64,000 bases of DNA, from the IMG/VR virus record IMGVR_UViG_3300050514_000135, positions 33,102 through 97,101 of that record; one strand, written 5' to 3'. A program made the translations under genes and the position numbers. The stretch comes from a virus (Duplodnaviria; Caudoviricetes). Shown here piece by piece: positions 34,852-49,238 of this stretch (position 1 is the first letter of the stretch; every line of letters starts with the position of its first letter). The notes below the pieces were generated by a model. It was given only the letters and a program-made list of their open reading frames with translations, had not been told where the DNA came from and did no database searches.

Positions 34852-35474
34852 CGAGCACCCGGCTTCACTCGCACGGTCGCCCACACGATCCCGACGCCGA
34901 CGGCGACGATCGCTAGTCCCGAGAGTATGCCCATGCCCGAACCTCCCGGCCCCGTCGCGCCCGCACCGGCGAAAGCCTTCTCCAGGTACTCCTGCCTGAC
35001 CTTCACGCACTGCTCGTACGTGACGCCGCTCGGGCAGACCGAGGTCGGCACGGCCTGCGCGCCGTTGAACCCGAAGTGGTAGTGGCCCATGTCGCCGCAC
35101 GCGCCGAATTGCTTCCAGCGCCCGCCCCACACGCCGCCTTGCGATTCCCACCACTCGCCGAGCTTCGTGTGCGTCTCGCACGTGTTCGGGATGAGGTCGA
35201 GGTCGATCGCGTGACCGAGCGTGTGCATCGAGCGGCAGAAGTCCGCCTGCGAATAGCCGAGGTCGACCTGCTCCTGCTGCGCCGAGCACGTGCGACCTAC
35301 GGAACGGATCTTCGGCGACCAGCCGTGCGCGGTGGCGTACGCGATCAGCGCCTCGACCTTGGGTCGCACCGCGGGCACGAGGTCGTCGAGCGTCTTGGTC
35401 GGCTGGAAGAGTTCGACCGTCGCCGCTCCGAGCCACTGCACTCGCGCGCCGCGCTTCACCCACTGCACGCTCAT
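34848..35474 (-). CDS. Tail-anchored M15-family peptidoglycan peptidase with WLG leader
   Basis: GRT...Q, SMHTLGHAIDL, WGGRW...DMGHYH; leader MSVQWVKRGARVQWLGA; C-terminal TM. Confidence 0.82.
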   Translation of the reverse strand: MSVQWVKRGARVQWLGAATVELFQPTKTLDDLVPAVRPKVEALIAYATAHGWSPKIRSVGRTCSAQQEQVDLGYSQADFCRSMHTLGHAIDLDLIPNTCETHTKLGEWWESQGGVWGGRWKQFGACGDMGHYHFGFNGAQAVPTSVCPSGVTYEQCVKVRQEYLEKAFAGAGATGPGGSGMGILSGLAIVAVGVGIVWATVRVKPGAR

Positions 35475-36472
35475 AGGAGGAAGTACCAGACTGCGGCAGC
35501 AACCGCGGCGAGGCCCCCGACAACGACGACCGGCGACGTCCCGGAACCGGAGGACGAGCTCGACCCGCCGAACAACTGGTCCGAGAGGTCGGGCACGCCC
35601 GGGACGAGGTTCCCCTTCGGCCACTTCACGGTCGCGTTCAGCTTGTCCATGTACGCCTTGGCGAGCGTCGTGGGAGCGTTGGTGGGGCAGCTGAGCTGCG
35701 GCTCGTTCGTCGGCGCGCCGCGGATGAAGTACTCGCAGTCCTTCTTCAGCTTGAACTTCTGGAACGCGATCTCGTCCTGCCCGACCGCGGACCAGTCGAT
35801 CGGCTCGCCCGGCGCGGCGACCGGGCCGATGTAGCCGTTGTAGTAGACCGCGTAGTTGTAGTCGGTGCAGGTGAACTTCGAGTTGACGACGCCGATGTTC
35901 TTCGCCGCGCCGCACTCCTTGATAGACGTCGGCGTGAGCGTCTGCTCGCCCGCGGCGTCGTAGCTCTCCTTCGACTCGAGGTACCGCACCTGCCTCGGTG
36001 CCCAGCGCGAGTTCACGGGCGCCGGCGGACAGCCCGCCGCGGTCAGCGAGGCGTCGCTCGCGAGTCCCTTCGTGATCGCGAGGTCGCGCATCGTGAGGTA
36101 GGCGCGCACCGAATAGATCGCCCGGGCCGAGACCTTGGCCTTCGCCCCGACCGAGGACATCGTGTCGACGACGAGGTCCTCCATCGTGGAGCCGTGCGCG
36201 ACCGGGATCTTGCTACCGATCCACTCGCCGATGATCCCACCGATGATCCCGCAACCGACCGCGACTGCGGGGCCGGCCGCCGCGCACAGTCCAGCACCGG
36301 CGATCGTGCCGCCGACCTTGCCGTACGCCTTGAGAGACTCCTCGTCGATCGCGCCGCGCCGCGCGATGACCTCCTTCGTGAGCGCGTTGTTCTCGAGCTT
36401 GTCGTAGCCCGTGTATGCGCCGACGCGCCCGAGCCAGAGCACGCGCCGCGGCCTCACCCACTCGACGTTCAT
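35471..36472 (-). CDS. Membrane protein with WLG leader and glycine-zipper
   Basis: MNVEWVRPRRVLWLG; GxxxG zipper; C-terminal TM. Confidence 0.7.
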   Translation of the reverse strand: MNVEWVRPRRVLWLGRVGAYTGYDKLENNALTKEVIARRGAIDEESLKAYGKVGGTIAGAGLCAAAGPAVAVGCGIIGGIIGEWIGSKIPVAHGSTMEDLVVDTMSSVGAKAKVSARAIYSVRAYLTMRDLAITKGLASDASLTAAGCPPAPVNSRWAPRQVRYLESKESYDAAGEQTLTPTSIKECGAAKNIGVVNSKFTCTDYNYAVYYNGYIGPVAAPGEPIDWSAVGQDEIAFQKFKLKKDCEYFIRGAPTNEPQLSCPTNAPTTLAKAYMDKLNATVKWPKGNLVPGVPDLSDQLFGGSSSSSGSGTSPVVVVGGLAAVAAAVWYFLL

Positions 36473-37044
36473 GTCACCCACCAAGCGACTCCGACGATCG
36501 CGGCGATCAAGAGCAGGGGAGCGATCGACTGCTTGGCGCCGGTCGCGATCGTCGGCGGATTGAGCTGCTCCTTGATAGACGCGGCCCAGGTCTTGTAGCC
36601 GTCACCGGTCGGGTGGATGCCGTCATCCTTGGCGACGGTCGGCTGGTCGATCGTGCGCGCGTTCGCGGCGATGACCGCCGCGATGAGCTCGGGGTACTCC
36701 CACGGGAGCTTTCCCGGCATGAGCCAGACGACCTCAGCGCCGGAGCCGCGGATCTTCACCGCGAGCTCGTTGACCTGCGCCTTCAGCGTCGCCGCGGGTA
36801 CCTTCCCCTTCGTGTCGTTGCTGCCCAGCGAGACCAGCACGCGCTTAGGGGTCAGCGCGAGCGCCGTCGCGAGGTCGGCGGACGCGAGCCACTGCGCGAC
36901 CGTCGTCCCGGTCTTGGCGAACGCCTGGAAGGGCTCCGGCGCCAGCGCCTCCTTCAAGGGCACGGCGAGGCCCACGGCGAGCGAGTCCCCGATGAGCACC
37001 GTGGGCTTGTCCCCGACGGCCCCGAGCCACTGCACGCGCGCCAT
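36469..37044 (-). CDS. Tail-anchored SGNH hydrolase with WLG leader
   Basis: MARVQWLG; IGDSLA, SLGSND, DGIHPT; C-terminal TM. Confidence 0.82.
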   Translation of the reverse strand: MARVQWLGAVGDKPTVLIGDSLAVGLAVPLKEALAPEPFQAFAKTGTTVAQWLASADLATALALTPKRVLVSLGSNDTKGKVPAATLKAQVNELAVKIRGSGAEVVWLMPGKLPWEYPELIAAVIAANARTIDQPTVAKDDGIHPTGDGYKTWAASIKEQLNPPTIATGAKQSIAPLLLIAAIVGVAWWVT

Positions 37045-37748
37045 CAGATCCACCCCAGGAGGTACGCCGCGCCGCCGACCGCGAAGGCACCGAGCGCGAG
37101 CGTGCCGAGTCCGGGTCCCGAGCTCGCGGACGAGCTCAGCGGGTTCGCTCCGAGCCAAGCGGCCGCGGCGTTGCTGTAGCCGAACGCGCGACCCGGGTAG
37201 TCGGCGGAGACGCCGCCGGTCGAGCAGTCCGCGATCACGTTCCACCGATTAGGCGCTGTGCACTTGCTGCTGGTGCCGCACTTCACGCTGCCGGCGTTGT
37301 ACGCGATCACGGTCTTGATCGGGTTGCCGCCGTACTTGGTCATGAGTTCCGACAGCAGCTTCGCGCCGAGGTCGACGTTCAGCGCCGGGTCACTGAGGAG
37401 CTCGTTGACGGACACCTTCCTCCCCGCCTGGTCGCTCGCGGTAGCGGGCAGGAGCCCCATGAGTCCGTAGCAGCACGACGAGTGCGCGTCTTGCTTCCCG
37501 CCGCTCTCGGTCGCCATCACGCCGTCGACGAACTGCGGCCAGAGCTTGTACTTGGCCGCCGCGGCGTCGACGATGGCGCGCCACTGCTTCACCTCCTCGG
37601 GGAGCTTCAGGGCCTTCGCGCCCTCGTTCTCGATCTCGATGAGGCCCTCTGGTGTCCAGCGAGCTCGCGGGCCGCTGCAGCCGGACTCGAACCACTGCGC
37701 CGGCGTCGAGACGGCGCCGAGTCCGAGCATGTAGTCGAGCGGGTGCAT
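37044..37748 (-). CDS. Tail-anchored SLT lytic transglycosylase with HPLDY tag
   Basis: MATESGG, GLMGL, NVDLGAKLL, AYNAG; N-terminal MHPLDYMLGLG; C-terminal TM. Confidence 0.88.
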   Translation of the reverse strand: MHPLDYMLGLGAVSTPAQWFESGCSGPRARWTPEGLIEIENEGAKALKLPEEVKQWRAIVDAAAAKYKLWPQFVDGVMATESGGKQDAHSSCCYGLMGLLPATASDQAGRKVSVNELLSDPALNVDLGAKLLSELMTKYGGNPIKTVIAYNAGSVKCGTSSKCTAPNRWNVIADCSTGGVSADYPGRAFGYSNAAAAWLGANPLSSSASSGPGLGTLALGAFAVGGAAYLLGWI

Positions 37749-37752
37749 CGCA

Positions 37753-38430
37753 TTATCGTTTGAACTTGAGAACCATGCCGGGCGACTGGTAGCGAGCCTT
37801 CGCTTTCGCTTCCTCGCGACTGTGCGCGCGGACGTAACCGTCGATCGCGCCGACGTCATCGTAGTAGCGGTAGAGCGGCGCCCCGACACCCCAGTATCGA
37901 CCGCGGCGGTCGTAGCCTCCTTGATTAAGAGGCACGCGTTCGAGGTAGATGTCGAACTGCGGCTCGCCAGCGTTCTCTTGCAACGCCGCGCCGCTCCCTC
38001 CGAGCAGGATGAGGAACAGGCCGACGACGAGCGCTCCGCCCACGACGTAGACCATGCTGTCGCCGGACTCGGAAGAAGAGGACGGCACCGCCCCCGGCTT
38101 AGCGGGAGGGGGGGTTCCGGGAGACGAGGACGGTGCCGAAGTCGGGGGCGCGAGCCAGCCAGGCGGCGGCTTCAACGGCCAGTCCCAGCCCGCCGGGTAG
38201 CCTGGCGGGCGCGGCGGAGGCCACGGTTGCCCCGTCAAGGACCAACCGAAGGGCGGGTCCTTCGGGAAGTCGCCGGTCGGCAACCACTGCATTCCCGTGA
38301 GGTCCCAGAACGGCGGCTTCGGTGGTGGCCACGGACCGGTCCAGCCGGGTGGGGCCGGAGCCGCGGGCAGAACTTGGCCTAGCGTGCCACGCACGCGCTC
38401 GTCGATCGGCTTGCTCCACTCCACCTTCAC
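37753..38430 (-). CDS. Pro/Trp-rich membrane protein with a C-terminal small domain
   Basis: MKVEWSKP..GTLGQ leader; PPGW repeats; TM; LQEN then GGYD..GRYWG.GAPLY domain. Confidence 0.7.
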   Translation of the reverse strand: MKVEWSKPIDERVRGTLGQVLPAAPAPPGWTGPWPPPKPPFWDLTGMQWLPTGDFPKDPPFGWSLTGQPWPPPRPPGYPAGWDWPLKPPPGWLAPPTSAPSSSPGTPPPAKPGAVPSSSSESGDSMVYVVGGALVVGLFLILLGGSGAALQENAGEPQFDIYLERVPLNQGGYDRRGRYWGVGAPLYRYYDDVGAIDGYVRAHSREEAKAKARYQSPGMVLKFKR

Positions 38431-38433
38431 GGC

Positions 38434-39183
38434 TCAGCGCTTCCTGCGACGCTTGCGCGGCCTACCCATGCCGGCCGTCGCACCGACGCCGACGTAGAAG
38501 TTCTCCTGCAGCTTCGGGGCGCCCAAGAACAGGGCAGCGCCGATTCCGACCACGATGAGGCCGCCGATGACCAGCGGCAGCGTGTTCGACGACGTGTCCG
38601 TCGCCGGTGTCGTCGGCGCCTGGTTAGGTGTGACGCGCACGTCGGCCGGGTTGACTGGCGGCTGAGGTCCGCCGCACTGCGCGATGCAATTGACCAGGTT
38701 GAAGACGTAACCGGGCGAGTTCGGCGGCACGCCTGTCGCCTGGAGGCAAGTGTCGACGCACGCCTGCGAGCCGGCGGGAACCTGGGGCAGGCCGGGGATC
38801 TGCGGCGGTGTTCCGGGTAGCGGTGCTGAACCACCGAACGGTGGAAACTGCCCTGGCTGCACGAAGCCCTTCGCCCACGCCTCGAGCGCGGCGACCTGAC
38901 CGGTCGTCGGCGTGTCCGCCGGCAATTGCTTGAACGTCACGGGTTGCCCATTGAGCGCCGTCCAGTAATCGACGAAGGCGTCCATCATGGCTTGGTCGCG
39001 TGCGGACCAATAACCCGTCAGGTCCTGCGAAGTGCCGTAGTCGGTGACCGGCACGTTGCCGTACAGGTTCTTCCACGACAGCAAGAGAGCCTTCGCCTTG
39101 AGCTGCAGCGCCGGCACCTCGCCGAGTCGCGAGACCGCGCCGAGCCACGAGACTTTCTTCTTGGATACCCACTGAACTTGCAT
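38434..39183 (-). CDS. Tail-anchored membrane protein with WLG leader
   Basis: MQVQWVSKKKVSWLG..RLG; Cys hairpin; TM; LQEN; RPRKRRRKR tail. Confidence 0.75.
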   Translation of the reverse strand: MQVQWVSKKKVSWLGAVSRLGEVPALQLKAKALLLSWKNLYGNVPVTDYGTSQDLTGYWSARDQAMMDAFVDYWTALNGQPVTFKQLPADTPTTGQVAALEAWAKGFVQPGQFPPFGGSAPLPGTPPQIPGLPQVPAGSQACVDTCLQATGVPPNSPGYVFNLVNCIAQCGGPQPPVNPADVRVTPNQAPTTPATDTSSNTLPLVIGGLIVVGIGAALFLGAPKLQENFYVGVGATAGMGRPRKRRRKR

Positions 39184-39187
39184 CGGC

Positions 39188-40087
39188 TTACCTTCCGGTC
39201 ATGACCGTGGTCTGGGCGACGTAGCGCTGGCCGGTCTTCCAGACGTTCACTTCGGACCCGTCGATGTGGCGCTTGCCCACGTACATGTAGCGCGCGTTGG
39301 CGGGCGTGATCATGACAATGTCCCACGGCTCGCTGGAGCTGTTGCGCCAGTTCTTGCCGCGATAGGCGTAGGCGTACCCGGACTTCGGGTGCGGCGGGTT
39401 AGCCTGCAGCATCGGCGATGCCTTGCTCAGGAGCAGCGCACCGACGGCCAGCGCCGCGATCCCGCCGGCGATGTAGAGACCGGTGTTCGACGACGCGCTC
39501 TCCGCGGGCGGCGACGTGGGCGGGGGCGTCACCGGCGGCGGCGTCACGGGAGGAGGTGTTACCGGCGGTGGGATGATGACCGGAGGGACGATGATCGGCG
39601 GCGGTGCCTGTCCAGCACAGAGCGACAAGCACGTGGCGAGGTTCACCGGGTCCAAAGCGTACTTCTGCTGGCAGTTCTGCGCGCAGATCACCGGGTCAGG
39701 ACTCGGCCCGGGATTCGGGTTGATCCCCTTGCTGACGGCCCAGTTCTGCAGCGCCTGCAGGTGCGGCGCGTCGGGGGGAGCGGCGACGGTCCCGCCCTCG
39801 CCAGCGACGCCCGTCGCGAGGTGTGGCGGCTTGCCTCCGCTGTTCCACCAGACGCTGAACGACTCGAGCGTCGCGCCGTCGCGGATCTTGGTGAACGGTG
39901 GAAGGAAGTCCCCGGGCTTCGTCCCGTAGTCCTGGAACGCCGCCGACTGATTCCCCTCGCCCTGCGCCCACGCGGAGAGCAGGGTCTTGATCTGGACCAT
40001 CTCCGCCTCGGTCGCGCCGAGCGTGCCGGGCACGCGGCCGAGCCACTGCGTCCTCGGTTCTCGCTTCACCCACTGCACTTGCGTCAT
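39188..40087 (-). CDS. Membrane protein with WLG leader, paralog of 38434..39183
   Basis: MTQVQWVKREPRTQWLGRVPGTLG; DYGT..D shared; PPVTPP repeats; TM; LQANP plus small domain. Confidence 0.75.
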   Translation of the reverse strand: MTQVQWVKREPRTQWLGRVPGTLGATEAEMVQIKTLLSAWAQGEGNQSAAFQDYGTKPGDFLPPFTKIRDGATLESFSVWWNSGGKPPHLATGVAGEGGTVAAPPDAPHLQALQNWAVSKGINPNPGPSPDPVICAQNCQQKYALDPVNLATCLSLCAGQAPPPIIVPPVIIPPPVTPPPVTPPPVTPPPTSPPAESASSNTGLYIAGGIAALAVGALLLSKASPMLQANPPHPKSGYAYAYRGKNWRNSSSEPWDIVMITPANARYMYVGKRHIDGSEVNVWKTGQRYVAQTTVMTGR

Positions 40088-40362
40088 GACTTCTTCTTTC
40101 CGTTCTCGTAGAGCGCCCACGCTAGCACGAACGCCTCGATGCTCGCCGCGCCGGCCAGTGAGTACTTGATCAGGTTCGGGCCTCTCAGCCCCACTACGTA
40201 CATGCCCACACCGACGAGCGCCGCGCGCATCGCCGTGTGGAAGATCATCACCGGGATAGCTGAGACGTCGCCAGCGACGAGCGCCTCGGCGCTCTCGCCC
40301 GAGGGGAGACCGGCGAGCGTGCTCGGCGCGCGCATCGGTTTGACCCAGGTGACGGCAGACAC
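40084..40362 (-). CDS. Small two-TM membrane protein
   Basis: MSAVTWVKP leader; two hydrophobic helices. Confidence 0.7.
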   Translation of the reverse strand: MSAVTWVKPMRAPSTLAGLPSGESAEALVAGDVSAIPVMIFHTAMRAALVGVGMYVVGLRGPNLIKYSLAGAASIEAFVLAWALYENGKKKS

Positions 40363-40363
40363 C

Positions 40364-40555
40364 TCACAACCTCCCCGTCTTCAGCGAGCCTACAGCTTTC
40401 ACCCCTCCGTAGATCGCCAGAGCTAGCAAGCCGAGCAGGAAGAGCGTCGGGACAACGCCCGACGTCTCGACAGCCGCCGAGGCGCCGAGCGTGTCAGGCA
40501 CGCGGCCTAGCCACTCGACCCGCTGCGTCCTCTGCTTGACCCAAGTGACCCTCAC
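40364..40555 (-). CDS. Minimal leader + TM protein
   Basis: MRVTWVKQRTQRVEWLGRVPDTLG, then a TM only. Confidence 0.7.
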   Translation of the reverse strand: MRVTWVKQRTQRVEWLGRVPDTLGASAAVETSGVVPTLFLLGLLALAIYGGVKAVGSLKTGRL

Positions 40556-40929
40556 CGGAGCCCTCCTCCTGCGATGAACCCGAGCGCGAGCGCGGCCACA
40601 CCTACGCCGAGCAGCAACGCGATCGAGTTGTCACCAGAACTCCCGGCAGACGCCGAGCAGAACGGCATCTTCTCGATCTCCTTGTCGAGCTGCATCGAGA
40701 CTGGGTCGGTCTTGTCCGGCCCAAACAGTTCCAAGATCCGCGCGCAGTTCGGGTACGCGGTGACGATCCCTTTTTCGACGCAGTTGTCGAACTCGCTGGT
40801 GTAGCAGGGCGGGAAGTACGACACAGCTTCTTTGAAGCGCTCGTCGTTGGTCAGACCAAGGCGCCCGCTCGGCAGCTTACCCAGCCACTGAACACCGTGA
40901 GCACTCTGCTTGACCCAAGTGACCCGCAC
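40552..40929 (-). CDS. Tail-anchored Cys-rich protein with WLG leader
   Basis: MRVTWVKQSAHGVQWLGKLPSGRLG; 4 Cys; C-terminal TM. Confidence 0.72.
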   Translation of the reverse strand: MRVTWVKQSAHGVQWLGKLPSGRLGLTNDERFKEAVSYFPPCYTSEFDNCVEKGIVTAYPNCARILELFGPDKTDPVSMQLDKEIEKMPFCSASAGSSGDNSIALLLGVGVAALALGFIAGGGLR

Positions 40930-40944
40930 TTAGCCTCCTCCGCC

Positions 40945-42147
40945 TCAGGCGGCGTACCGACCGCGCTTCTTGTGCCGGCGGCGCTTCGGGTTCTGCTGGA
41001 GACGACCCGCGGCGGACTTCGGCAGCTTCGGGGGCTTCCCGAAGAACGCGAACGCGCCGAGCGCGAGACCGGCGAGCGCGAGCGCTCCGACGCCGCCGAG
41101 GCCGGTCGACGTCGACGAGACGGCGGGGTTGGCGACGCAGTCACCCGTAGCGTTGCGGGTGTAGTTCGCCGGGCACTTGTCAACGCACTTGCCGTTCACG
41201 CAATCCTGCGTAGGCGAGCAGCCAGCGTTGTCGGTGCAACCGGGTGCGGGGCCGGGCGTGCCGGTCTTGCAGTCCGGATTGAACGCGCTCTTCGACTGGT
41301 CGATGCTCCCGCACTGGGCCGGGACGGCGACGGACCCGTCGAGGTAAGTCTGCACGTAGATCGCCGCCGCGCAGGTCGTGGGACCGAGCTTGCCGTCCGC
41401 GCCGATCGGGCAGATCTTCTGCGTCGCGAGCGCAGCGTTGATCTTGGCCTGCAGCGCACCGACGTTCGTCGGTGACCCGCCCTCGAGCGCCGCTTGCGCC
41501 AGGCACGTGGGGTCACAGGCGACGACGCAAGCGTCAAACGCCGCGGGGTTGTTTTGATTCTGCGCCGTGCACTTCTGCGCGCACATGTTGTAGCAAGACT
41601 TGTAGGTGATCGTATCGTGCAAGTCGCCTTGCCCGAGTCGACCGGTTCGTCCGATCCATTGCACGCGCCGCGCGCCGAAGATCGGGTGGAACGGGGGCAT
41701 CGGCCGAGCCTGATTCGTCCACGTGATCGTGGTGGTACGTCCAAAGGGCACGATGAACGGCGTCTCGACGAACGGGAAGATCGACTGCCGGGTGTAGAAC
41801 GGGATGGGCACCGTCGCCACGGGCTCGGGCGGCGGCGGGACCATCGCGCCGACCTGGTACGTGACGCCGCCGTCGTACGTGCAGTAGCTCGTGCCGGGGC
41901 CGTAGTACTGGTACGCCTTCTTGTAGACGCCGCACGTGACGTAGCTCGCGCCGTAGGTCTGGCCGAGACTCAGGAGCTGGTTCACGCCCTGCTGGTGAGT
42001 GATCCACCCGGGCGGCGTGTAGGCGTACACGACCGATCCGTTGCCGAACTTCTCGCGCACGGTGAACGTCCACGACTCGGCGTCGTACGGTTGACCGAGT
42101 CGGCCTTGCTTTCCGGCCATCGGTTTGGTCCAGTTCACGTGCTTCAT
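40945..42147 (-). CDS. Cys-rich tail-anchored protein with two leader copies and a PG-binding-like motif
   Basis: MKHVNWTKP..GRLGQ and internal RVQWIGRTGRLGQ; VGALQAKIN...ADGKLGPTT; EGF-like Cys; TM; LQQNPKRRRHKKR. Confidence 0.72.
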   Translation of the reverse strand: MKHVNWTKPMAGKQGRLGQPYDAESWTFTVREKFGNGSVVYAYTPPGWITHQQGVNQLLSLGQTYGASYVTCGVYKKAYQYYGPGTSYCTYDGGVTYQVGAMVPPPPEPVATVPIPFYTRQSIFPFVETPFIVPFGRTTTITWTNQARPMPPFHPIFGARRVQWIGRTGRLGQGDLHDTITYKSCYNMCAQKCTAQNQNNPAAFDACVVACDPTCLAQAALEGGSPTNVGALQAKINAALATQKICPIGADGKLGPTTCAAAIYVQTYLDGSVAVPAQCGSIDQSKSAFNPDCKTGTPGPAPGCTDNAGCSPTQDCVNGKCVDKCPANYTRNATGDCVANPAVSSTSTGLGGVGALALAGLALGAFAFFGKPPKLPKSAAGRLQQNPKRRRHKKRGRYAA

Positions 42148-43025
42148 GTAAACAATCTCCTGTCCGAGTTTTGAAACAGTTTGCCAGACCGGGTCGGCAG
42201 CTGACTGCAGTCGGGCCAGAGCTCGACGGTGAGCGCGCCGGCGACGCGACCGTAGTGGGCCGTGGTCGGGAACATGAAGAGGAACCGGTCCTCCTGCGCG
42301 ATTGCGCCGAGGTCCGTGGGCGGCGTCACGCTGCAGATGTCCGCGGGGTCGAACTGGTTGACGCTCGCGTAGAGCACCACGCGTCCGGGGCCGTAGACCG
42401 GGATGTACGTCTCGAAGTCGCGGTTGTCGCGCCACGTGCCCAGCATGCCGAGCCCCGGCTCGAGGGGCATGCCGCTGTTCGGTGGCACGTACGGGACGAG
42501 CGGCGGGCGGTAGAGCAGCGCGGTGTCGTTCCCCTCGAACGAGACGTCGCGCCCGCCGCCCATGCTCGCGTCGCTGAAGCGGTTCCCGGCCTGGCCGAGG
42601 AGCTGGTGGCGGAGGTGCCACGAGATGTTGCCGCCCGGCGGCTGCCAGAACGGCTCGCGGATCAAGATCTCGAACGGCCGCCCGGGGCAGTCGGGGTTCG
42701 CGCCCGTGAGGAGGCCGGCGAGCGTCTGCGCCGTGTGCACGGCACGCACGACGATCGCGCCATGGTTCGGGATGTCGACGACGACGAGCCGGAACAGGTA
42801 CCGGTGGTACTGGTCCGTGGTCGGGGCGAGCGGCACCTCGATGCCCGTCGAGCTCATGTCGCCGACGTACGGGGACGAACCGACCGCGATGTTGCGCAGT
42901 TGGAACGCGCTCGACACCACGTCGAGCAGCACCGGGCAGCCGCAGAGCCAGTGCCGGTGGTCAGCGCCTACGTGCGCGATCTCGGTCTGTGCTGCGGTTG
43001 CGGGTCCGATCTTCTCAAGTTCCAT
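42144..43025 (-). CDS. Beta-rich putative virion structural protein
   Basis: No TM; alternating beta patterns; follows the candidate capsid genes. Confidence 0.55.
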   Translation of the reverse strand: MELEKIGPATAAQTEIAHVGADHRHWLCGCPVLLDVVSSAFQLRNIAVGSSPYVGDMSSTGIEVPLAPTTDQYHRYLFRLVVVDIPNHGAIVVRAVHTAQTLAGLLTGANPDCPGRPFEILIREPFWQPPGGNISWHLRHQLLGQAGNRFSDASMGGGRDVSFEGNDTALLYRPPLVPYVPPNSGMPLEPGLGMLGTWRDNRDFETYIPVYGPGRVVLYASVNQFDPADICSVTPPTDLGAIAQEDRFLFMFPTTAHYGRVAGALTVELWPDCSQLPTRSGKLFQNSDRRLFT

Positions 43026-43041
43026 CCGTCACACCCTTCGC

Positions 43042-43662
43042 TCAGGGCGGACAGATGCCCTTTTCCTTGAGGACCGCGAGCGCGTCCTGGATCGAGATCT
43101 GCGCGTAGCAGTTGCTGCGCGGGAGACGCATGACGTGGAGGCTGACGATGACCTCGGTCGGGATCTCGTCGGGGTCGACGAGGGCGCGGGTGTTCGTGAA
43201 GGTGGCGATGGCCGACGCCCCGCACGTGAGCACGAGGCCCACCGGGCAGACGCAGCTGAACGCCTCCTCGAAGTTGCCGAGCGGGGTCGGGTCGCTGGAG
43301 ATGACGAAGTTGCACCACGTGCGGATCTGCAGCGTGATGTCGATGTCCGGGTTCTGCGCGTATGCGGTGTTCGCGATGTCGCGGAGAGGGTTGCCGGGAA
43401 AGTAGTTCGGCCGGCGGACGGTCGCCTGGACGTCCTTCAACCAGACGTCGACCTCGGCGAGCTCCTCGAACTTGACGGGCAAGGGTTGGTTGGCGGTCGC
43501 GCTCGTGAACGAGGCGCGGAGGTTCAAGATCTCCCAACCGCCGATCGCGCTCGAGACGATGCCGCGCGCGCTCGCTCCGGAGTACAGGAGCGTCGCAGCG
43601 AGCTTCGGATCGAACTCCGCAATCTCGCCCAACGTGAACTGGCGGGGGGCTGTCTTTCGCAC
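43042..43662 (-). CDS. Beta-rich putative minor capsid protein (jelly-roll candidate)
   Basis: GTG at 43662 after GAGG; beta-strand pattern ending EVIVSLHVMRL. Confidence 0.5.
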   Translation of the reverse strand: MRKTAPRQFTLGEIAEFDPKLAATLLYSGASARGIVSSAIGGWEILNLRASFTSATANQPLPVKFEELAEVDVWLKDVQATVRRPNYFPGNPLRDIANTAYAQNPDIDITLQIRTWCNFVISSDPTPLGNFEEAFSCVCPVGLVLTCGASAIATFTNTRALVDPDEIPTEVIVSLHVMRLPRSNCYAQISIQDALAVLKEKGICPP

Positions 43663-43704
43663 TGTGACCTCGAATCCAAAAGAGAGTGAGTGAAGAGGCG
43701 GTGC

Positions 43705-43734
43705 GGGGTGCCCGAGCGTGAGCCCGAGCACCCC
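43705..43734 (-). terminator. Stem-loop terminator/attenuator after the candidate major capsid gene
   Basis: Minus-strand RNA GGGGUGCUCGGGC-UCAC-GCUCGGGCACCCC, a 13-bp stem whose two mismatches are G-U pairs only on the minus strand; pyrimidine-rich tail follows. Confidence 0.7.
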
Positions 43735-43749
43735 TCGCCGTTAGTCCGA

Positions 43750-44961
43750 TCACTCGTCGGGGTTGACGGTCGCCTTGCGGTTCTCGAGCAGGATCTTGAG
43801 GTTCTCCTTGCCCTGCTTGGTGAGGCCCGAGAGGTGGGCCGTACCCTTGAGCGCGCTCTGCTGGAGCAGGCCCTGGATGTAGCTCGACTCGAGCAACATC
43901 TGGAACTGCAGCGAGTCCGGGTAGACGTAGTTCAGGTAGTCGATGCACGCGCTCGGGAAGAGCTCGACTCCGAACAGGCCCACGCCGAACGAGAAGCACC
44001 CGCCGGGGATGGTGTACGCCGACGAGTAGCCGACGCCGCACGCGGTGTCCTCGGTCAGGATGCCCGGCGCCGGAGACGGGATGGTCTCCAGGTCGAGCAC
44101 GCCCTCGCGACGCATCGCTTCGAGGAAGCAGCAGTCCTGCTCGACGCGCGACAGCCCGATGCGGATCGTGGTCGTCGGGACGTAGAGCAGCGGGCGCTGG
44201 AAGCAGTACATCTTGTGCCCGAGGCCGGTTCCGGTGAAGTGCCCGTAGGTGTTGCCGGCAGTCGGTGCACCGATGCACTCGGTGCCCGCGTCGCCGACGA
44301 CGACGTTCTGCGGGATGAAGAGCCGATCGTAGCCCTTGTCGTGCAACACGCTGTTCGTCGCGATGACGTACTTCTGCGCGGCCGCGAGCGAGTCGCCCGC
44401 ACCGCCGAAGACGTTGGGCTTCGGCCAGACGCCGATGTGGCTCGCGAGCTCGTCGACGACGACGATGCGGCGGCCCATGCGGATCTGCAGGCGATACGCC
44501 TGGACGAAGTTCTCGCCGAAGATCTGCCCGGGACCACCCCAGTCGAGCGCCGCATTGCGCGCGGCAGCGTCGCCGGCGAGTCCGCCGACAGGAACGCAAC
44601 CGTCGAAGCACGGCGTGGCCGAACCCGCGTCGGGCTCGGTGACCAGCGCGCCGGGGAGCGCGAACTGGCGACCCTCAGCGATGAAGGTCAAGAACGCGCC
44701 GAGGGCCAAGAACGGCGTCTCGACGCGCGCGCCGGTGAAGGCGCCGGTGATCTGACGACCGGGACAGGCTTCCGCCTCGGTGTCGACGTTGAAGAACTGG
44801 AGGCCCGCCTCGAACCGAGCGAACTCGGCCGGGGTGAGTGGCATCTTCAACTGGGTCTGGTCGCTGATGATCGCCGTGATGGCGGTCCACGGGAGGTTCA
44901 CTGCCTCGCCGATGCTCGAGACCTTCTTCCAGGCTTGTGCGTTGTTGGTGACGTTGGCCAT
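43750..44961 (-). CDS. Candidate major capsid protein (non-HK97, possibly jelly-roll)
   Basis: 403 aa, no TM, beta-rich; strong purine-rich RBS GGAAGGAAAAAGAGAG, A-rich upstream leader and downstream hairpin suggest high expression. Confidence 0.5.
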   Translation of the reverse strand: MANVTNNAQAWKKVSSIGEAVNLPWTAITAIISDQTQLKMPLTPAEFARFEAGLQFFNVDTEAEACPGRQITGAFTGARVETPFLALGAFLTFIAEGRQFALPGALVTEPDAGSATPCFDGCVPVGGLAGDAAARNAALDWGGPGQIFGENFVQAYRLQIRMGRRIVVVDELASHIGVWPKPNVFGGAGDSLAAAQKYVIATNSVLHDKGYDRLFIPQNVVVGDAGTECIGAPTAGNTYGHFTGTGLGHKMYCFQRPLLYVPTTTIRIGLSRVEQDCCFLEAMRREGVLDLETIPSPAPGILTEDTACGVGYSSAYTIPGGCFSFGVGLFGVELFPSACIDYLNYVYPDSLQFQMLLESSYIQGLLQQSALKGTAHLSGLTKQGKENLKILLENRKATVNPDE

Positions 44962-45053
44962 GTTCTCTCTTTTTCCTTCCGACCGACCGCGGGTCATCCG
45001 CTCCGGCCGCTCAAACAAACTTTGGTTTCGGGGTTAGTTTTTTCTGTCGTGGT

Positions 45054-46913
45054 TTACTGGCGATTCGCTCCGGAGAACTCCAGCGACCGGCGCGTCATGT
45101 CGTCCATGTTGCCGTTCGAGCGAGCTCCGGCGATGACCGCGGGCGGTGCCGCCTGCGGGACAGTCGGCTGCACGTCGGTGAACACCTCGACCGGCACGGG
45201 ACCGGCACCCGGCATGAGCGGCTGCACGCCCGAGTATCCGGGCGGAGGCAGCGCGTTCGTCACCGGGACGCCAGTCGGCGGTTGCTTCTCGATCACGAGG
45301 CACACTCCGTAGGGGAGCATGACCGCGTTGCCGGGTTGCCAGTACGAGCTCGGGTCCCCGCCGCCGTTCATGGCGCTGATGGCGTCGATGCTGACGCCTC
45401 CAGCAGCCGCGAGAGCGCTGAGGTCCTCGCCCGCCTGGACGACGTGACGACACTCGGTGTTGTTGTTGTACTTGGCGCAGTTCGGGCAGAGCGTCTCGCA
45501 GTTCGAGTAGCAGCCGTTGAAGCCACCGCACTCCGTGCAGTTGCCCAAGCGACCGGTGTTGACGAACGTGCGAGCTTGCTGACCCGGACGGCCGACGCCG
45601 TTCGCGTCGCCGAGCTGGTAGATCGATCCGCCACCGGCGCCCATCGGCGACTGGATGACGGGCGGAGTCTGCTGGCCCGGAGCGAGCTGCGGGATGAAGG
45701 GGCGCGTGGCGAAGAGCTTCGCGACGTTCTCCTGGATGTACGCCTGCTCCATCGGGTAGGCGCGGTTTCCGAAAGTGGCCTTGCCCGCGTCCGCCGCGTT
45801 GACCTTGAAGATCGCCGGGGCTGCGTACCAGTCCCAGAGCATCTTCAGGCCGTTCGCGCCGAAGCCGACGGCGACGCCGCCGAGCACCCACGGGATGAGC
45901 CCGCGGCCGCGCGTGAAGTACGTGCCGGCCATGCCAGCCGCGGCTCCACCGAGCTGCGTGGCGAGGCGCCAAGCGTCCGGCTTCATGCGGTAGGCTGCCG
46001 CCGCGTCCTTGCCGTAGTACGGGTTCGTCCCGTCCTTCGGCTTGCGCGTCGCGACGAGGCGGTCGGCGACGTCAGCGGCCGTGAGGCCGATGAACACCGC
46101 GATGGCCGCGACGCCGTACGCCCGGATCGAGCTCATGCTGAATGCTCCGTCGGCGTTCTCGTAGAGCACCGGAGCGTGACCCGACACGAGTCCGAGCCCG
46201 ATGGGGTTCTCCTGCATCATGCGCCGGCGACCCCCGCCCTTCCGCTTGTGCCGGCGGCGTCGAGTGACCTCGACGACCTGCACCTGGGCGGCCTTGGCCG
46301 CGGGGAGACGAACGATGTGAGTCTTGGCGACGGTCGAGCGACGGCTGCGACGACGCTTCTTCGCGTGGCTGCGCTTCTTGCCGTGACTGCGCCGTTTCGC
46401 CTTCTTCGTGTGCTTGCGCTTCCGGCGGCGTTTCGCGCCGCCCGCTCCCATAGCCATGGCCATGAGCGGAGTCATGCGACGAGACCGCTTAGCCCTGCGC
46501 TTGGCCTTCCGCTTGCCCTTCTTGCCCTTACGCTTGCGCTTCTTGGAGGGGTTTTCCGAAAGTGCCATTTGTTCTTGCTCCTCATTCTCCTCGTACCGGT
46601 GACCCCGGCCACGATTCTCTGAAAGTTTGGGGTTCGCGGTCAACTCTTGCCGGCGTGCCGGTCGTTTCTTCATCTTCGAGATCTTGCCGATGTTCGACGT
46701 GCCGTACTTGCTCTTGAGCGCCGAACGCATCTTCTTGAACGCCGCGATCTGCGCCGCTGAGCGCTTCTTCTTCCGGGGATTGTCCTTCAACACTTTGGCC
46801 ACCGGGTTCTCCTCAATCACAGGCGCGTGCGACGCACGCGGAGTTTTTTTCTTCAAGTAGTCGGCGAGACGTTTCTGAAAACGCAGCGCGGTCTTGGTCG
46901 GCTCGTGCATCAT
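45054..46913 (-). CDS. Arg/Lys-rich core-like membrane protein with NP repeats and a LysM domain
   Basis: Poly-basic tracts separated by EENP/KDNP/TANP/SENP/QENP; about 3 TMs; Cys cluster; LysM HVVQAGEDLSALA...VSIDAISAMN...QPGNAVMLP. Confidence 0.75.
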   Translation of the reverse strand: MMHEPTKTALRFQKRLADYLKKKTPRASHAPVIEENPVAKVLKDNPRKKKRSAAQIAAFKKMRSALKSKYGTSNIGKISKMKKRPARRQELTANPKLSENRGRGHRYEENEEQEQMALSENPSKKRKRKGKKGKRKAKRRAKRSRRMTPLMAMAMGAGGAKRRRKRKHTKKAKRRSHGKKRSHAKKRRRSRRSTVAKTHIVRLPAAKAAQVQVVEVTRRRRHKRKGGGRRRMMQENPIGLGLVSGHAPVLYENADGAFSMSSIRAYGVAAIAVFIGLTAADVADRLVATRKPKDGTNPYYGKDAAAAYRMKPDAWRLATQLGGAAAGMAGTYFTRGRGLIPWVLGGVAVGFGANGLKMLWDWYAAPAIFKVNAADAGKATFGNRAYPMEQAYIQENVAKLFATRPFIPQLAPGQQTPPVIQSPMGAGGGSIYQLGDANGVGRPGQQARTFVNTGRLGNCTECGGFNGCYSNCETLCPNCAKYNNNTECRHVVQAGEDLSALAAAGGVSIDAISAMNGGGDPSSYWQPGNAVMLPYGVCLVIEKQPPTGVPVTNALPPPGYSGVQPLMPGAGPVPVEVFTDVQPTVPQAAPPAVIAGARSNGNMDDMTRRSLEFSGANRQ

Positions 46914-47452
46914 GGCGAAACAAAGCCTCGGCTGTCAACGACGCATCCTGACGGGAGCGGCATGCGCCACGCGAGTGGTGTCCCTTGACCGGTGACCAAC
47001 AGGTCAACCGGATGAGAGAACTCGTGCTCGTAAAACCCTCGTGCATGTCCCGCGCGTCGGTAGCGAATGAAAGCGACCTTGCCGACACGATGCCACGAGC
47101 CTTTTGGAATGTCGATACGACCGATCGGCAAGGGCTGACCGTTGCCGAAGTACACGCGCGCGTCCTGCAGCACAACTGGTGACACTTGTGCACGCGACGT
47201 GCGCCCGCGCTTGTCGCGAACGATGTGCATGTCGCAGCGACTGAGCAGGCGCCCCTCCGTGTCGTGAACCAGCACGAATTCCGGCGGAATCTTGATGTCG
47301 CTCGGCATCCCGTAGTAGTCGAGTTTATGCCTGCCGACGCGCCTCACTTGCTCGACGCTCACGAACTCGAGGTGGGTCGAGCGCACGAGCAGCGAGCCGG
47401 TCTTGCAGTAGCCGGTGTTGCAGACTGTCGCTTGTGCAATTCGGGACGTCAT
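46910..47452 (-). CDS. Hypothetical protein (start possibly 47308, MPSDIK)
   Basis: IRY...YEHEF...RGF pattern; coupled to the downstream gene. Confidence 0.6.
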   Translation of the reverse strand: MTSRIAQATVCNTGYCKTGSLLVRSTHLEFVSVEQVRRVGRHKLDYYGMPSDIKIPPEFVLVHDTEGRLLSRCDMHIVRDKRGRTSRAQVSPVVLQDARVYFGNGQPLPIGRIDIPKGSWHRVGKVAFIRYRRAGHARGFYEHEFSHPVDLLVTGQGTPLAWRMPLPSGCVVDSRGFVSP

Positions 47453-48321
47453 CAGGGTGTCGCCGAGGCTAGCGCGCGCTTCATCGACATCGACGAGCCC
47501 ACGAGGTAGAGGCCGAACCCGACCAGGCCGATGATGCCGACCGTCGCGATGAGCTTCGTGTAGTCGTTGACCGCCGGCGCTCCGGCGTTCTTCTCCGCGG
47601 CGGCGGCGAGCTTCACCGACTCAGCGCCGTCGAGCAGGGCCTTCGTCTGCGCGGCAGCCTGCTCGGGCGTGGCCTTGCCGCTCGTCACGAGCTCCGTCTG
47701 ATTGTTCGAGAGCGTGCGCAGCATCTTGTTCGTGGAGACCGTTGACGCGAGCGCGAACGACTCCTTGACGATCCCGTACGCGGCGAGCGCGATGAGCCCG
47801 TTACCGACGATGCCGCCGGCGATGAGGAGCGGCAGGATGCCGACTGTTCCTGAACCGTGCGCGGTGTTGCCCGACGTCGCGTCGAGGAGCACGGGCTTGC
47901 CGCCCACCACGCCCACGCGCATCGCGTCGGTCGGCAACGCCTCGACCACGAAATCTTGAAGCTGATTGCTGTAGATCAACTTGCGCTTGTTCGCGAGCAC
48001 GTCGCTCGCGCCGTCGACCGCGATCTTGCCCATCGCGACCAGGTCCACTGCCTGCTGGTCGAGGTCAGGACCCCAAGCTCCTGGATCGACTGCGCCGCCC
48101 TCGCCGCCGGTGCCGGACATGAACGGCAGCCCGAGGTCCTCGCGCACCTTCTTCAGTCCGAGATAGGACTTCACCATGGCGTCGCGCGACGCCTGCGTGC
48201 TGTCGCGCAGCGCGGTGATGAGCGCGGTCCAAGCGTCCAGGTTCGGGTCCGCCGGTTGCCCGAGCATGCGCTTCAGCGCGACGGGGATCTGCAGCGGGTT
48301 AGCCCATTTCGTCGTCGTCAT
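47452..48321 (-). CDS. Two-TM membrane protein
   Basis: MTTTKWANP...MLGQ; two hydrophobic helices. Confidence 0.7.
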   Translation of the reverse strand: MTTTKWANPLQIPVALKRMLGQPADPNLDAWTALITALRDSTQASRDAMVKSYLGLKKVREDLGLPFMSGTGGEGGAVDPGAWGPDLDQQAVDLVAMGKIAVDGASDVLANKRKLIYSNQLQDFVVEALPTDAMRVGVVGGKPVLLDATSGNTAHGSGTVGILPLLIAGGIVGNGLIALAAYGIVKESFALASTVSTNKMLRTLSNNQTELVTSGKATPEQAAAQTKALLDGAESVKLAAAAEKNAGAPAVNDYTKLIATVGIIGLVGFGLYLVGSSMSMKRALASATP

Positions 48322-49238
48322 TGGGTAGTCCTCATCTTCGACATGCGATCGTAGAGGTTCAGACCGAGCGTCGCCGCGCTGATCGCGAGTCCCCCGATCA
48401 AGATCTTCTCGAGCGTCGTGAAGTGCTCGCTCTTCTGCGCTGCCTCGCGCTCCTGCTCGGTCTGCGTCTGCCCCAGCCACTGCATGCGAGGCTTGGTCCA
48501 GACGACCGGCTTCGGTTTCGTCTCCCAGATCACCCTGGTGGTGAGCCCCGCGGTGCTGGTAGGCGGGGCTCCGACGCCGACGAAGATCCCGCGGTCGACG
48601 AAGTTGTGCTGTTCGGGATTGAACTGTGTCTGCGCGCCGCTGAAGCAGGCGTGCGCGTCGCACAGCACCTTGATGTTCGGCACGCTGACGACACGCTCGC
48701 GCTGGAACGGCACGCACTCACCGAGTCGGAGCTCGGACAGGCTCGGGTCCGCGTAGTTCCACTTGTCGTTGAACCAGACGACGCAGAGCACGTGCTCGAT
48801 GACGTCGCCGCCGTACCCGTGACCTACGATCGCCACGTGCATTCCGACGGAACCGAACGCCGACGCGCAGAGCACGAGCAGTCCGTCGCAGTCGTCGCCC
48901 TTCAGGCACGGGATCTCGTTGCCGAGCTCGTCGTGGTGGGGCTTCGCCGGGTCGCAAGCGAGTAGATGCGCCTTGGGGATGTATTCCGCGTTGATCGGGT
49001 CAGGCACCCAGAGCTTGGTCTGCGCGGCCTTCAAGATCACGCGCGCCCGCGCCGACGGCGAGTCGACGGCCTGCCCCAGGTTCCTCGCCTCGTCGAGGCG
49101 GTCGATCGCCCAGCTCCGCACGTAGGCGTTGCTCATCCCCTCCGCGACGAACTCGGCCACGCGGTCGAGCGAGGTGCGCGTACCCTGCTCTCCGTACGGG
49201 TGCGACCTCACGTCGGAGACGAACGGGCGCGGCGGCAT
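48318..49238 (-). CDS. Transglutaminase-like Cys protease/transamidase, membrane-anchored
   Basis: GDDCDG (Cys), EHVLC (His), WNYADPS (Asp) triad; C-terminal VVWTKPRMQWLGQ followed by a TM. Confidence 0.78.
   Translation of the reverse strand: MPPRPFVSDVRSHPYGEQGTRTSLDRVAEFVAEGMSNAYVRSWAIDRLDEARNLGQAVDSPSARARVILKAAQTKLWVPDPINAEYIPKAHLLACDPAKPHHDELGNEIPCLKGDDCDGLLVLCASAFGSVGMHVAIVGHGYGGDVIEHVLCVVWFNDKWNYADPSLSELRLGECVPFQRERVVSVPNIKVLCDAHACFSGAQTQFNPEQHNFVDRGIFVGVGAPPTSTAGLTTRVIWETKPKPVVWTKPRMQWLGQTQTEQEREAAQKSEHFTTLEKILIGGLAISAATLGLNLYDRMSKMRTTQ

Follow-up and report, generated by a model that had tools for sequence, protein, structure and literature searches.

A 619-residue protein encoded in a 64,000-nucleotide stretch of viral DNA (hereafter the window) may be a virion protein that binds and condenses DNA on the viral membrane of a large bacterial virus from an undescribed lineage, a reading that we favor but hold tentatively. 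On this reading, the 235-residue polycationic N terminus would bind the viral dsDNA and help to condense it by charge, in the manner of protamines, histone H1 tails and arginine-rich capsid arms. An invariant Asn-Pro junction joins this basic region to a Gly/Ala-rich three-helix domain that would sit in or on the viral lipid membrane, so that the genome would be tethered to the membrane beneath a jelly-roll shell, while a Cys-rich module and a LysM domain on the opposite side would engage peptidoglycan when the particle encounters the cell wall or departs from it. A co-encoded Cys-His-Asp enzyme most likely recognizes the recurring L-x-E-N-P elements, and cleavage at maturation would free some or all of the basic blocks from the anchor. 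Judging from gene content, the virion probably contains a membrane. A single gene with three separable domains and one motif would offer a testable handle on another mode of genome organization in bacterial viruses, in a virus lineage that is invisible to standard marker searches.

Architecture and family of the 619-residue protein

The start codon of the gene shares bases with the stop codon of the gene upstream (ATGA), and its product is identical to entry P0001 of the protein collection. The gene, its upstream partner and the parts of the protein are as follows:

45054..46913, minus strand: whole open reading frame, 619 aa, stop codon included, GC3 of 0.85
46910..47452, minus strand: conserved 180-aa protein, translationally coupled to the 619-aa protein (ORF list; homologs in relatives)
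46209..46913, minus strand: basic N-terminal region, aa 1-235, with unalignable counterparts in homologs
46050..46136, minus strand: helix 1, aa 260-288, the most hydrophobic, with conserved D281, D284 and R285
45915..45974, minus strand: helix 2, aa 314-333, Gly/Ala-rich with weak hydrophobicity, following an invariant PDAWR
45807..45896, minus strand: helix 3, aa 340-369, carrying a GGxAxGFGxN motif
45477..45539, minus strand: Cys cluster CxxCx5Cx3Cx3CxxC, aa 459-479, with six Cys, all invariant
45300..45455, minus strand: LysM domain with flanking C488 and C538, aa 487-538, from profile matches and an AlphaFold2 model
45057..45284, minus strand: Pro/Ala/Val-rich C-terminal tail, aa 544-619, with little conservation and modeled at pLDDT below 50

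A preliminary description of this DNA, made from the letters of the sequence, had proposed a long Arg/Lys-rich N terminus followed by three hydrophobic segments, a CxxC cluster and a LysM domain, and this tripartite architecture (basic region, membrane core, Cys/LysM) proves real and is conserved throughout a large family. Residues 1 to 245 contain 17.6% K and 16.7% R and carry a net charge of +69, and the region includes a block at aa 122-236 with a net charge of about +51. The KR block also contains DNA repeats, in the form of 2 to 5 tandem copies of 9 to 21 nt, which are trivial.

The middle segment is predicted by AlphaFold2 as three long helices (260-288, 314-333 and 340-369; pLDDT of about 75-81), which agrees with the number of hydrophobic segments previously described, but their hydrophobicity is only marginal: Kyte-Doolittle peaks reach 1.64-1.8 for helix 1, less than 1.2 for helix 2 and 1.39 for helix 3, and the summed Hessa energies are all positive (+3.5, more than +7 and +5.7, respectively). 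With these values, stable membrane integration and a count of three spans are tentative. The closest structures to the helix triplet are triplets of transporter transmembrane helices with Z scores of 7-8, which is below significance for helical proteins, and a feature search of the ESM Atlas with the membrane domain was uninformative, returning unnamed clusters only (scores of 0.85 or less).

The C-terminal modules proved as described. Six Cys residues (C459, C462, C468, C472, C476 and C479) are invariant in homologs, and conservation is at least 90% for C488 and C538; the position of this latter pair on either side of the LysM domain suggests a disulfide. Pfam LysM (PF01476) matched the single sequence with an E value of 0.0085 (16.5 bits against a threshold of 20.9) and gave weak matches in 7 of 12 homologs, while the best eight matches of the family profile in the PDB were all LysM domains (E values of 2e-4 to 0.06) that spanned all 46 residues; profile positions 257-310 also picked up multi-LysM proteins. 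The AlphaFold2 model of residues 487-534 shows the beta-alpha-alpha-beta order of LysM (strand 487-491, helices 498-505 and 509-515, strand 530-534; pLDDT 73-82). The domain is thus the same module of about 45 aa as PF01476, differing in that the sequences are singly below threshold, that a Cys pair flanks it and that a six-Cys cluster lies ahead of it.

The protein is a member of a large unannotated family that is newly recognized here. An exhaustive profile search defined the family, with 352 representatives at an E value below 1e-10 and 64 below 1e-30, and the membrane core was present in 106 of the representatives inspected. About 80% of these 106 proteins have an N-terminal extension with a K+R fraction of 0.25-0.46 and a net charge of about +30 to +90. 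The extensions are unalignable among homologs and of differing kinds, either KKRR-type (KR-rich) or with H1-like AKKPAAKK repeats (P0122 and P0109), which suggests that selection has kept the charge and not the sequence, as would be expected of a binder of polyanions such as DNA. The N termini of P0044, P0051 and P0064 instead consist of acidic DDNP repeats, so NP repeats can occur without charge blocks, although P0051 and P0064 may have miscalled starts like that of P0009. We considered whether P0009 and P0012 naturally lack the basic region and rejected this, as their frames are open upstream; the short forms seen in the family are artefacts, either of annotation or of contig ends. This amounts to a systematic annotation error, in which gene callers, including those behind an NCBI record, start at an internal Met and lose the basic domain. 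At least 100 metagenomic clusters show the tripartite design, which is therefore probably the means by which viruses of this group tether their DNA to their membrane.

Close relatives are few. Three other contigs make up the near clade in IMG/VR, a profile search of genome contigs with the neighboring capsid candidate (see below) returned no relatives, and tblastn with the 619-aa protein and the capsid candidate found no match in 50,697 GenBank phage records. Binning of HYV99614.1 hints at Gemmatimonadaceae as hosts, and the presence of an integrase suggests that there may be prophages. We found no description of the lineage or the protein in the literature.

Asn-Pro motifs and the neighboring Cys-His-Asp enzyme

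All eight motifs named in the preliminary description are present, and the second start that it had proposed has the signal described for it:

46803..46817, minus strand: IEENP, aa 33-37 (motif scan)
46776..46790, minus strand: LKDNP, aa 42-46 (motif scan)
46611..46643, minus strand: LTANP (aa 91-95) and LSENR (aa 97-101) (motif scan)
46548..46595, minus strand: YEENE (aa 107-111) and LSENP (aa 118-122), with Met116 in between (motif scan)
46566..46583, minus strand: possible internal start (MALSENP...), with GAGGAG at 46583-46578, a 9-nt spacer and ATG at 46568-46566
46203..46217, minus strand: junction motif MQENP, aa 233-237, with N236 and P237 invariant in alignment A1
46152..46166, minus strand: LYENA, aa 250-254, with L250 invariant and N253 nearly invariant

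The internal start is putative: the GAGGAG ahead of ATG 46568 is a product of the motif region's own Glu codons, and among related loci L004 has AGGAG at equal spacing ahead of the equivalent Met while L003 and L006 lack that Met.

Within the genome, the motifs are concentrated in this protein. A hydrophobic residue stands at -3 for 8 of the 9 Asn residues in the first 260 aa, the commonest form being L-x-E-N-P, and the pattern [LIMVFY]xxN[PR] occurs six times there, a count that none of 20,000 shuffles reached and that is 3 or less in every other protein of the genome. In a logo of 119 Asn sites from 12 homologs, L occupies -3 at 53 sites, E occupies -1 at 57 and P occupies +1 at 49, against background frequencies of about 5% for each residue. 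All 12 aligned homologs share the NP directly ahead of helix 1, which is also found in every distant member read. Asn is better conserved than Glu, with A, D and Q also found at -1, which marks Asn as the key residue and led us to reject a T4-type LxE-cut motif. We also do not favor NP plus a basic run as an SPKK-like DNA-binding turn, since K/R at +2 to +4 after NP is only at background level. Cleavage at the motifs, if it occurs, would release two basic blocks, one of 49 aa (+16) and one of 115 aa (+51), along with short peptides. In many family members L-x-E-N-P copies are sparse or missing in the basic region (often 0-1), so multisite processing would be lineage specific at best.

A candidate for the cleaving enzyme is encoded nearby, in the same conserved module as the capsid candidate:

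48318..49238, minus strand: 306-aa Cys-His-Asp enzyme with a C-terminal transmembrane segment, candidate maturation protease, three genes upstream of the 619-aa protein
43750..44961, minus strand: major capsid candidate, 403 aa, directly downstream of the 619-aa protein, from synteny and a model with pLDDT 74

In the 306-aa enzyme C117, H149 and D164 are invariant, in Cys-His-Asp order, and one ortholog carries an intein-like insertion precisely at the invariant Cys. The homolog in L011 (36% identity over 232 aa) matches PF01841 (Transglut_core) with 23.8 bits against a 23-bit threshold; the enzyme of the window itself matched neither PF01841 nor other Pfam families, and the family profile had no match in the PDB. 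From these sequence features, the enzyme is a member of the transglutaminase-like superfamily and a candidate protease or transglutaminase.

Capsid module and genome packaging

Gene order was read in eight relative loci, and in each of them the gene for the 619-aa protein lies immediately upstream of a capsid candidate of about 400 aa, and homologs of other module genes are kept as far as distant relatives. The capsid candidate models as a beta-sandwich with weak structural neighbors (Z scores of 5-6), including the SPV1 capsid chain (Z of 5.7, 131 residues aligned, rmsd of 3.6), HCIV-1 (Z of 5.4), FLiP (Z of 4.9) and PRD1 P3 (Z of 4.9, 159 aligned, rmsd of 6.0), with the single-jelly-roll proteins (SPV1 and HCIV-1) scoring slightly higher than P3 and FLiP. 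Foldseek searches of the PDB and BFVD with the model returned only matches with E values above 0.01 (papillomavirus L1 and assorted capsids), hhalign detected no homology among three consecutive beta-rich proteins (probability below 1%), and 10 proteins of the structural block had no match in PHROGs. The late gene block that holds the 619-aa protein also encodes at least 10 proteins with strong transmembrane segments, among them an SLT enzyme with a C-terminal transmembrane segment, as well as an M15 cell-wall enzyme. Proteins of 403, 229 and 293 aa are the shell candidates.

The genome is a complete unit of 93,375 bp that encodes roughly 115 proteins; CheckV rates this complete genome as 57% complete. 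Seven hallmark Pfam families were searched in its six frames and gave no terminase, portal, HK97 capsid, FtsK or A32-type ATPase: PF03237, PF03354, PF04466, PF04860 and PF05065 were unmatched at E values up to 1, and PF01580 and PF04665 (FtsK/HerA and A32 packaging ATPases) had no matches. With no terminase large subunit, portal or HK97 match, we found nothing among these markers that would place the virus with the tailed phages (Caudoviricetes). The P-loop (Walker A) proteins of the genome are a primase-helicase and a UvrD-like helicase only. Because most genes of the lineage are without known relatives, absence of an ATPase at the sequence level is weak evidence that none is encoded. Full neutralization of the 186,750 phosphates of the genome would by arithmetic from charge and genome length take about 2,700 copies of the 619-aa protein, so condensation by this protein alone would likely be partial.

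To our knowledge, every well-studied large dsDNA virus of bacteria uses an ATP-driven motor to fill a shell formed beforehand, and the virus-encoded DNA-condensing proteins that we know of come mainly from eukaryotic viruses and from a few archaeal ones. SPV1 combines a single-jelly-roll shell, an inner membrane and a nucleoprotein core without a packaging ATPase (PMC8459092, PMC8812541), and a packaging ATPase is missing from both SPV1 and FLiP, which are icosahedral membrane viruses (PMC8812541). Even with these two as precedent, replacement of the motor by DNA condensation is speculation here. There is a smaller chance, and we regard it as doubtful, that the family as a whole is the membrane-anchored nucleoprotein of widespread, undescribed bacterial viruses of about 60-120 kb, which would have a portoglobovirus-like build, DNA condensed on the membrane without portal pumping and L-x-E-N-P maturation cuts made by a transglutaminase-fold protease.

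Alternative roles and comparison with known systems

The preliminary description had gone further in proposing a polyprotein like adenovirus pVII/mu, which would be cut at every motif into free basic peptides and a membrane/LysM fragment, with condensation at the membrane replacing an ATP motor. The predicted spacing into 49-aa and 115-aa blocks plus short peptides, the conservation of the Cys-His-Asp enzyme in the module and a complete genome with no detected packaging ATPase, as in SPV1 and FLiP (PMC8812541), would all fit. Even so, we find this version unlikely, since homology to pVII/mu and adenain is absent, a cross-linking transglutaminase or a deamidase is an equally good reading of the neighboring enzyme, many members have no more than one motif copy within the basic region, and an undetected ATPase says little in a lineage whose genes mostly lack known relatives. 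A low-copy delivery protein (pilot or penetration) would put the same domains to another use: it would be stored with the DNA, and upon infection its helices would enter the host membrane, LysM would grip peptidoglycan and the tail would escort a DNA end into the cell. Cleavage at the Asn-Pro junction during maturation might arm the hydrophobic part; autocleavage at Asn-Pro is reportedly found in reovirus mu1 and FlhB/EscU. Marginal hydrophobicity suits proteins that are soluble first and membrane active later, LysM domains are typically extracytoplasmic and here have a potential disulfide at their flanks, the conserved NP lies right before the hydrophobic domain in aligned and distant members alike, and the SLT and M15 cell-wall enzymes share the gene block. 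We nevertheless take this role to be on the unlikely side, if a serious contender, as a tail of +69, or up to +90, far exceeds what holding one DNA end needs, the gene adjoins the capsid gene and is translationally coupled in an operon, as for an abundant component, and autocleavage requires a folded context whereas the junction is modeled as disordered (pLDDT 31-41).

Topology bears on a further possibility, in which the protein stays out of the virion as a host-envelope-anchored factor that fixes the site of replication or assembly to membrane and wall, or that acts in egress or lysis. An N-in/C-out orientation with a periplasmic LysM is the simplest positive-inside reading of the +69 N terminus, and most other LysM proteins are enzymes or anchors associated with the wall; the place of the gene within the conserved capsid module, upstream of the capsid candidate at every relative locus read, makes such a role improbable. 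The loop after helix 1 has a net charge of about +4 as counted from the sequence, which conflicts with a simple N-in/C-out three-span arrangement. The favored reading, a virion protein that condenses DNA on the viral membrane, makes its own demand on topology: PRD1 acquires its membrane by inward vesiculation, a route that would leave a cytoplasmic +69 tail outside the vesicle, facing the capsid and away from the DNA, so that a LysM-out/DNA-in topology would need a different assembly route. We consider it highly improbable that the polycationic region, instead of binding DNA, has anionic components of the envelope as its targets (lipids, LPS, teichoic or capsular polymers) or serves as a propeptide to be discarded or a spacer akin to a scaffold. 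The acidic DDNP-repeat N termini that replace basic ones in P0044, P0051 and P0064 speak for this, but about 80% of members are at +30 to +90, some with H1-type AKKP repeats typical of DNA condensers, and two of the three acidic cases (P0051 and P0064) have perhaps miscalled starts.

Adenovirus provides an analogy only. A Pfam scan of the 619-aa protein at E values up to 0.1 matched LysM and none of pVII, V and mu, and adenain (Peptidase_C5, PF00770) was unmatched in six frames of the genome at E values up to 10, so the homology implied by a pVII/mu-like polyprotein was not found. Adenovirus pVII and pre-mu (pX) are Arg/Lys-rich proteins that condense dsDNA in an icosahedral jelly-roll capsid; their precursors carry several copies of a short cleavage motif, in which the fourth position ahead of the cut is hydrophobic, and adenain, the cysteine protease of the virus, is encoded nearby. 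The protein of the window shares a basic region with repeated motifs and a cysteine enzyme nearby, with cleavage putative, but its motif is L-x-E-N-P rather than (M/I/L)XGX-G, its basic part continues into a membrane domain and LysM, and the neighboring enzyme differs from adenain in being transglutaminase-like with Cys-His-Asp order.

SPV1 (Portogloboviridae) resembles the present virus in its jelly-roll-like capsid, here a candidate, and in that no packaging ATPase was found, with the membrane here predicted from genes. SPV1 is an archaeal 20-kb virus, whereas the genome here is 93 kb with a bacterial-type host, and its nucleocapsid protein VP1 is separate, whereas the candidate DNA-binding part here is fused to a membrane anchor; as far as we know, VP1 is neither polycationic and low in complexity nor membrane anchored.

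Genome maps of tectiviruses mark LysM proteins in the Bam35-Toil group (PMC5894146). Like P7, P11, P14, P18 and P32 of PRD1/Bam35, the 619-aa protein brings putative membrane segments and a wall-binding or wall-degrading module beside the capsid gene, and it had no Pfam or PHROG match to any of these membrane-associated proteins. We know of none among them with a polycationic domain, and PRD1 packages its DNA with the P9 ATPase, whereas a packaging ATPase was not detected here. In having a predicted disordered polycationic arm that keeps its composition and not its sequence, the protein resembles the hepatitis B core C-terminal domain, the N-terminal arms of jelly-roll capsid proteins, protamines and histone H1 tails; it differs from arginine-rich capsid arms in that its structural part is a putatively membrane-associated three-helix module and its arm is much longer (200-350 aa across the family).

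Genomic setting and the conserved module

The 619-aa protein under study has a GC3 of 0.85, usual for genuine genes in this genome (66% G+C), and its ATG shares the sequence ATGA with the stop codon of an upstream 180-aa gene, which places it in a tightly coupled operon. It belongs to a seven-gene module whose order is kept from near to distant relatives (loci L003, L004, L006, L007 and L011 to L014, on contigs of about 26 to 121 kb), among which the module proteins fall to 25 to 35% identity. This morphogenetic module could provide a marker set for the virus lineage.

42144-49238, the module: Cys-His-Asp enzyme, 290-aa protein with 2 TMs, 180-aa protein, target, capsid candidate (~400 aa), ~210-aa and ~290-aa proteins
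48318-49238, minus strand, transglutaminase-like Cys-His-Asp enzyme (306 aa)
45054-46913, minus strand, target (619 aa)
43750-44961, minus strand, capsid candidate (403 aa)

The first 3,726 bases of the 97,101-bp IMG/VR record that holds the window (33102-97101) recur at its end with one mismatch, which points to a unit of 93,375 bp, either circular or with terminal redundancy, that is very probably complete; the record is classed as "linear," with a CheckV completeness of 57%. The genome encodes a family A DNA polymerase, a primase-helicase, helicases, an integrase, ThyX, a NUDIX protein, a DHH phosphoesterase, an SLT protein, and an M15-like peptidase. Six-frame Pfam searches at E values up to 1 gave no match to three terminase families, portal, HK97 capsid, FtsK/SpoIIIE, or A32 ATPase, and Walker A motifs are confined to the replication helicases. 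The structural block had no PHROG match and no tblastn match among GenBank phages, and the late block encodes at least 10 proteins with strong TM segments. The capsid candidate, directly 3' of the target gene, has 18 homologs and was modeled as a β-sandwich (pLDDT 74), with best structural neighbors that are weak but include jelly-roll capsid proteins from viruses with internal membranes; these fit, without proving, a membrane-containing jelly-roll virus.

Structural neighbors of the modeled capsid candidate
SPV1: Z 5.7, 131 residues aligned
HCIV-1: Z 5.4
HHIV-2: Z 5.3
FLiP: Z 4.9
PRD1 P3: Z 4.9

A widespread family with a basic arm

A word-index search recovered 11 homologs in addition to the target itself, and an exhaustive search with its C-terminal 380 aa as a profile returned 2,789 matches, many through LysM alone (352 at E < 1e-10 and 64 at E < 1e-30). 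The helical core is present in 106 proteins among the matches listed, about 80% of which carry an N-terminal extension of 100 to 350 aa with a K+R fraction of 0.25 to 0.46 and a net charge of +30 to +90. These extensions cannot be aligned and differ in type, from KKRR-type to histone H1-like AKKPAAKK repeats (homologs P0122 and P0109). The nearer half of the family is characterized by LysM and the Cys cluster, and distant members retain CxxC. One of these distant members, P0167 (L011:10001-12112), has a folded N-terminal part matching Pfam DUF6582 (E 5e-7) before its basic region, a match that ties this uncharacterized Pfam family to the virus module.

Natural short forms lacking the arm were considered and rejected. 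The frame of P0009 is open over 616 codons and encodes the full Arg-rich region, P0012 extends to a contig edge, and the annotated start of HYV99614.1 (NCBI, from a Gemmatimonadaceae MAG) is the internal Met of MAMLENPG. The called starts of L013:5326-7176, L014:2-1471, and P0176/P0177 (HYV99614.1) all lie at the internal Met of an M-L-E/D-N-P junction, upstream of which a 200-aa Arg-rich region is in frame and open and was dropped by gene callers. Since the short forms are start-calling or contig-edge artifacts, the basic arm is close to universal; its loss looks like a systematic artifact, with annotation pipelines routinely discarding it. The original observation on this protein is real and far stronger than a single sequence implied: the target defines an unannotated, widespread family that keeps one genomic position in a virus lineage not previously described.

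Domain architecture and a possible role in the virion

The Arg/Lys-rich N terminus reported in the preliminary description was borne out, with all 8 punctuating motifs found, 34% Lys plus Arg in residues 1 to 245, and a net charge of +69. So was the Cys cluster (CxxCx5Cx3Cx3CxxC, residues 459 to 479, with additional Cys at 488 and 538). The proposed LysM domain is weak from one sequence (E 0.0085, under Pfam's threshold) and solid at the family level: it accounts for 8/8 best PDB matches of the 12-homolog profile, spanning the full 46-residue domain, and AlphaFold2 models a β-α-α-β fold there (pLDDT 73 to 82). The "about 3 TMs" are only partly confirmed: three long helices were modeled by AlphaFold2 (260-288, 314-333, and 340-369), but they are Gly/Ala-rich with marginal hydrophobicity, and their closest structural neighbors, transporter TM-helix triplets at Z 7 to 8, are not significant for helical proteins. 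As for the suggested second start, GAGGAG does stand 9 nt before an ATG (46583-46566) and consists of Glu codons of the motif region. L004 has AGGAG at the same spacing ahead of the equivalent Met, which L003 and L006 lack; an internal start is possible but unsupported.

The most economical reading is that the target would be a tripartite structural protein: a polycationic arm that would bind the genome, a helical domain in or on a viral membrane, and a LysM that would face peptidoglycan during entry or exit. The earlier likening to adenovirus pVII/mu holds as a functional analogy only, as the target has no homology to pVII/mu and the virus encodes no adenain. Topology poses a difficulty, because the +69 N terminus must stay cytoplasmic, and inward pinching of the membrane, as in PRD1, would leave the arm facing the capsid rather than the DNA; the model would thus require either that a membrane-bound DNA condensate be wrapped or that a rearrangement follow assembly. 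Full neutralization of 186,750 phosphates at +69 per copy would take about 2,700 copies, and neutralization by the target alone is likely partial. That DNA condensation stands in for a packaging motor is a speculative possibility with precedents: SPV1 has a nucleoprotein core beneath a membrane beneath a single-jelly-roll shell, and both it and FLiP lack a packaging ATPase (PMC8459092, PMC8812541). We found no described counterpart in the literature of a putative DNA-condensing arm fused to a membrane anchor and LysM; the components and logic are of known kinds.

Asn-Pro motifs and the Cys-His-Asp enzyme

A hydrophobic residue precedes 8 of the 9 Asn in residues 1 to 260 at position -3, and this stretch holds 6 matches to [LIMVFY]xxN[PR], a count reached in 0 of 20,000 shuffles, with every other protein of the genome having at most 3. 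For 12 homologs, 119 Asn sites of the N-terminal regions were tallied: L occupies -3 at 53, E occupies -1 at 57 (where A, D, and Q are seen as well), and P or R occupies +1 at 49 and 24, respectively, against a background of about 5% for each residue. Asn-Pro is invariant in the copy directly before helix 1 in the aligned homologs, and every distant member read likewise has NP ahead of this helix. In many members the basic block itself contains no copies, and some members have DDNP runs in acidic surroundings.

Our best guess from these sequences is that L-x-E-N-P is recognized by the enzyme encoded alongside it, given that enzyme's invariant Cys-His-Asp triad, the Pfam Transglut_core threshold reached by its L011 homolog, and an insertion at the catalytic Cys of its L003 ortholog (L003:6501-7697). 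The motif may mark cleavage, autocleavage at Asn-Pro, or a nonproteolytic role. The insertion is roughly 140 aa long, lies exactly between GDD and the catalytic Cys of GDDCDG, starts with CFAEGTLVL, ends with VSQ|C, and has weak Pfam Hint/Hint_2 matches (E 0.003 to 0.02). Inteins are typically Hint-like, and a mini-intein probably interrupts the active site of this putative viral maturation enzyme.

Elsewhere, L/M-x-x-N-P occurs on the minus strand in other proteins at 9813, 23973, 37154, and 39409 (LQQNP twice, LGANP, and LQANP), shortly past a TM helix at 9813 and 39409 and at the C terminus of the SLT protein at 37154; its excess across the proteome is only about twofold. A V-x-W-x-K ... 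W-L-G leader, which the target lacks, would be a distinct signal for addressing or maturation. It begins many late membrane proteins (34848-41000); the MTTTKWANP N terminus of the protein at 47452-48321 is just a weak variant, and the Cys-His-Asp enzyme carries the leader element VVWTKPRMQWLGQ immediately before its C-terminal TM.
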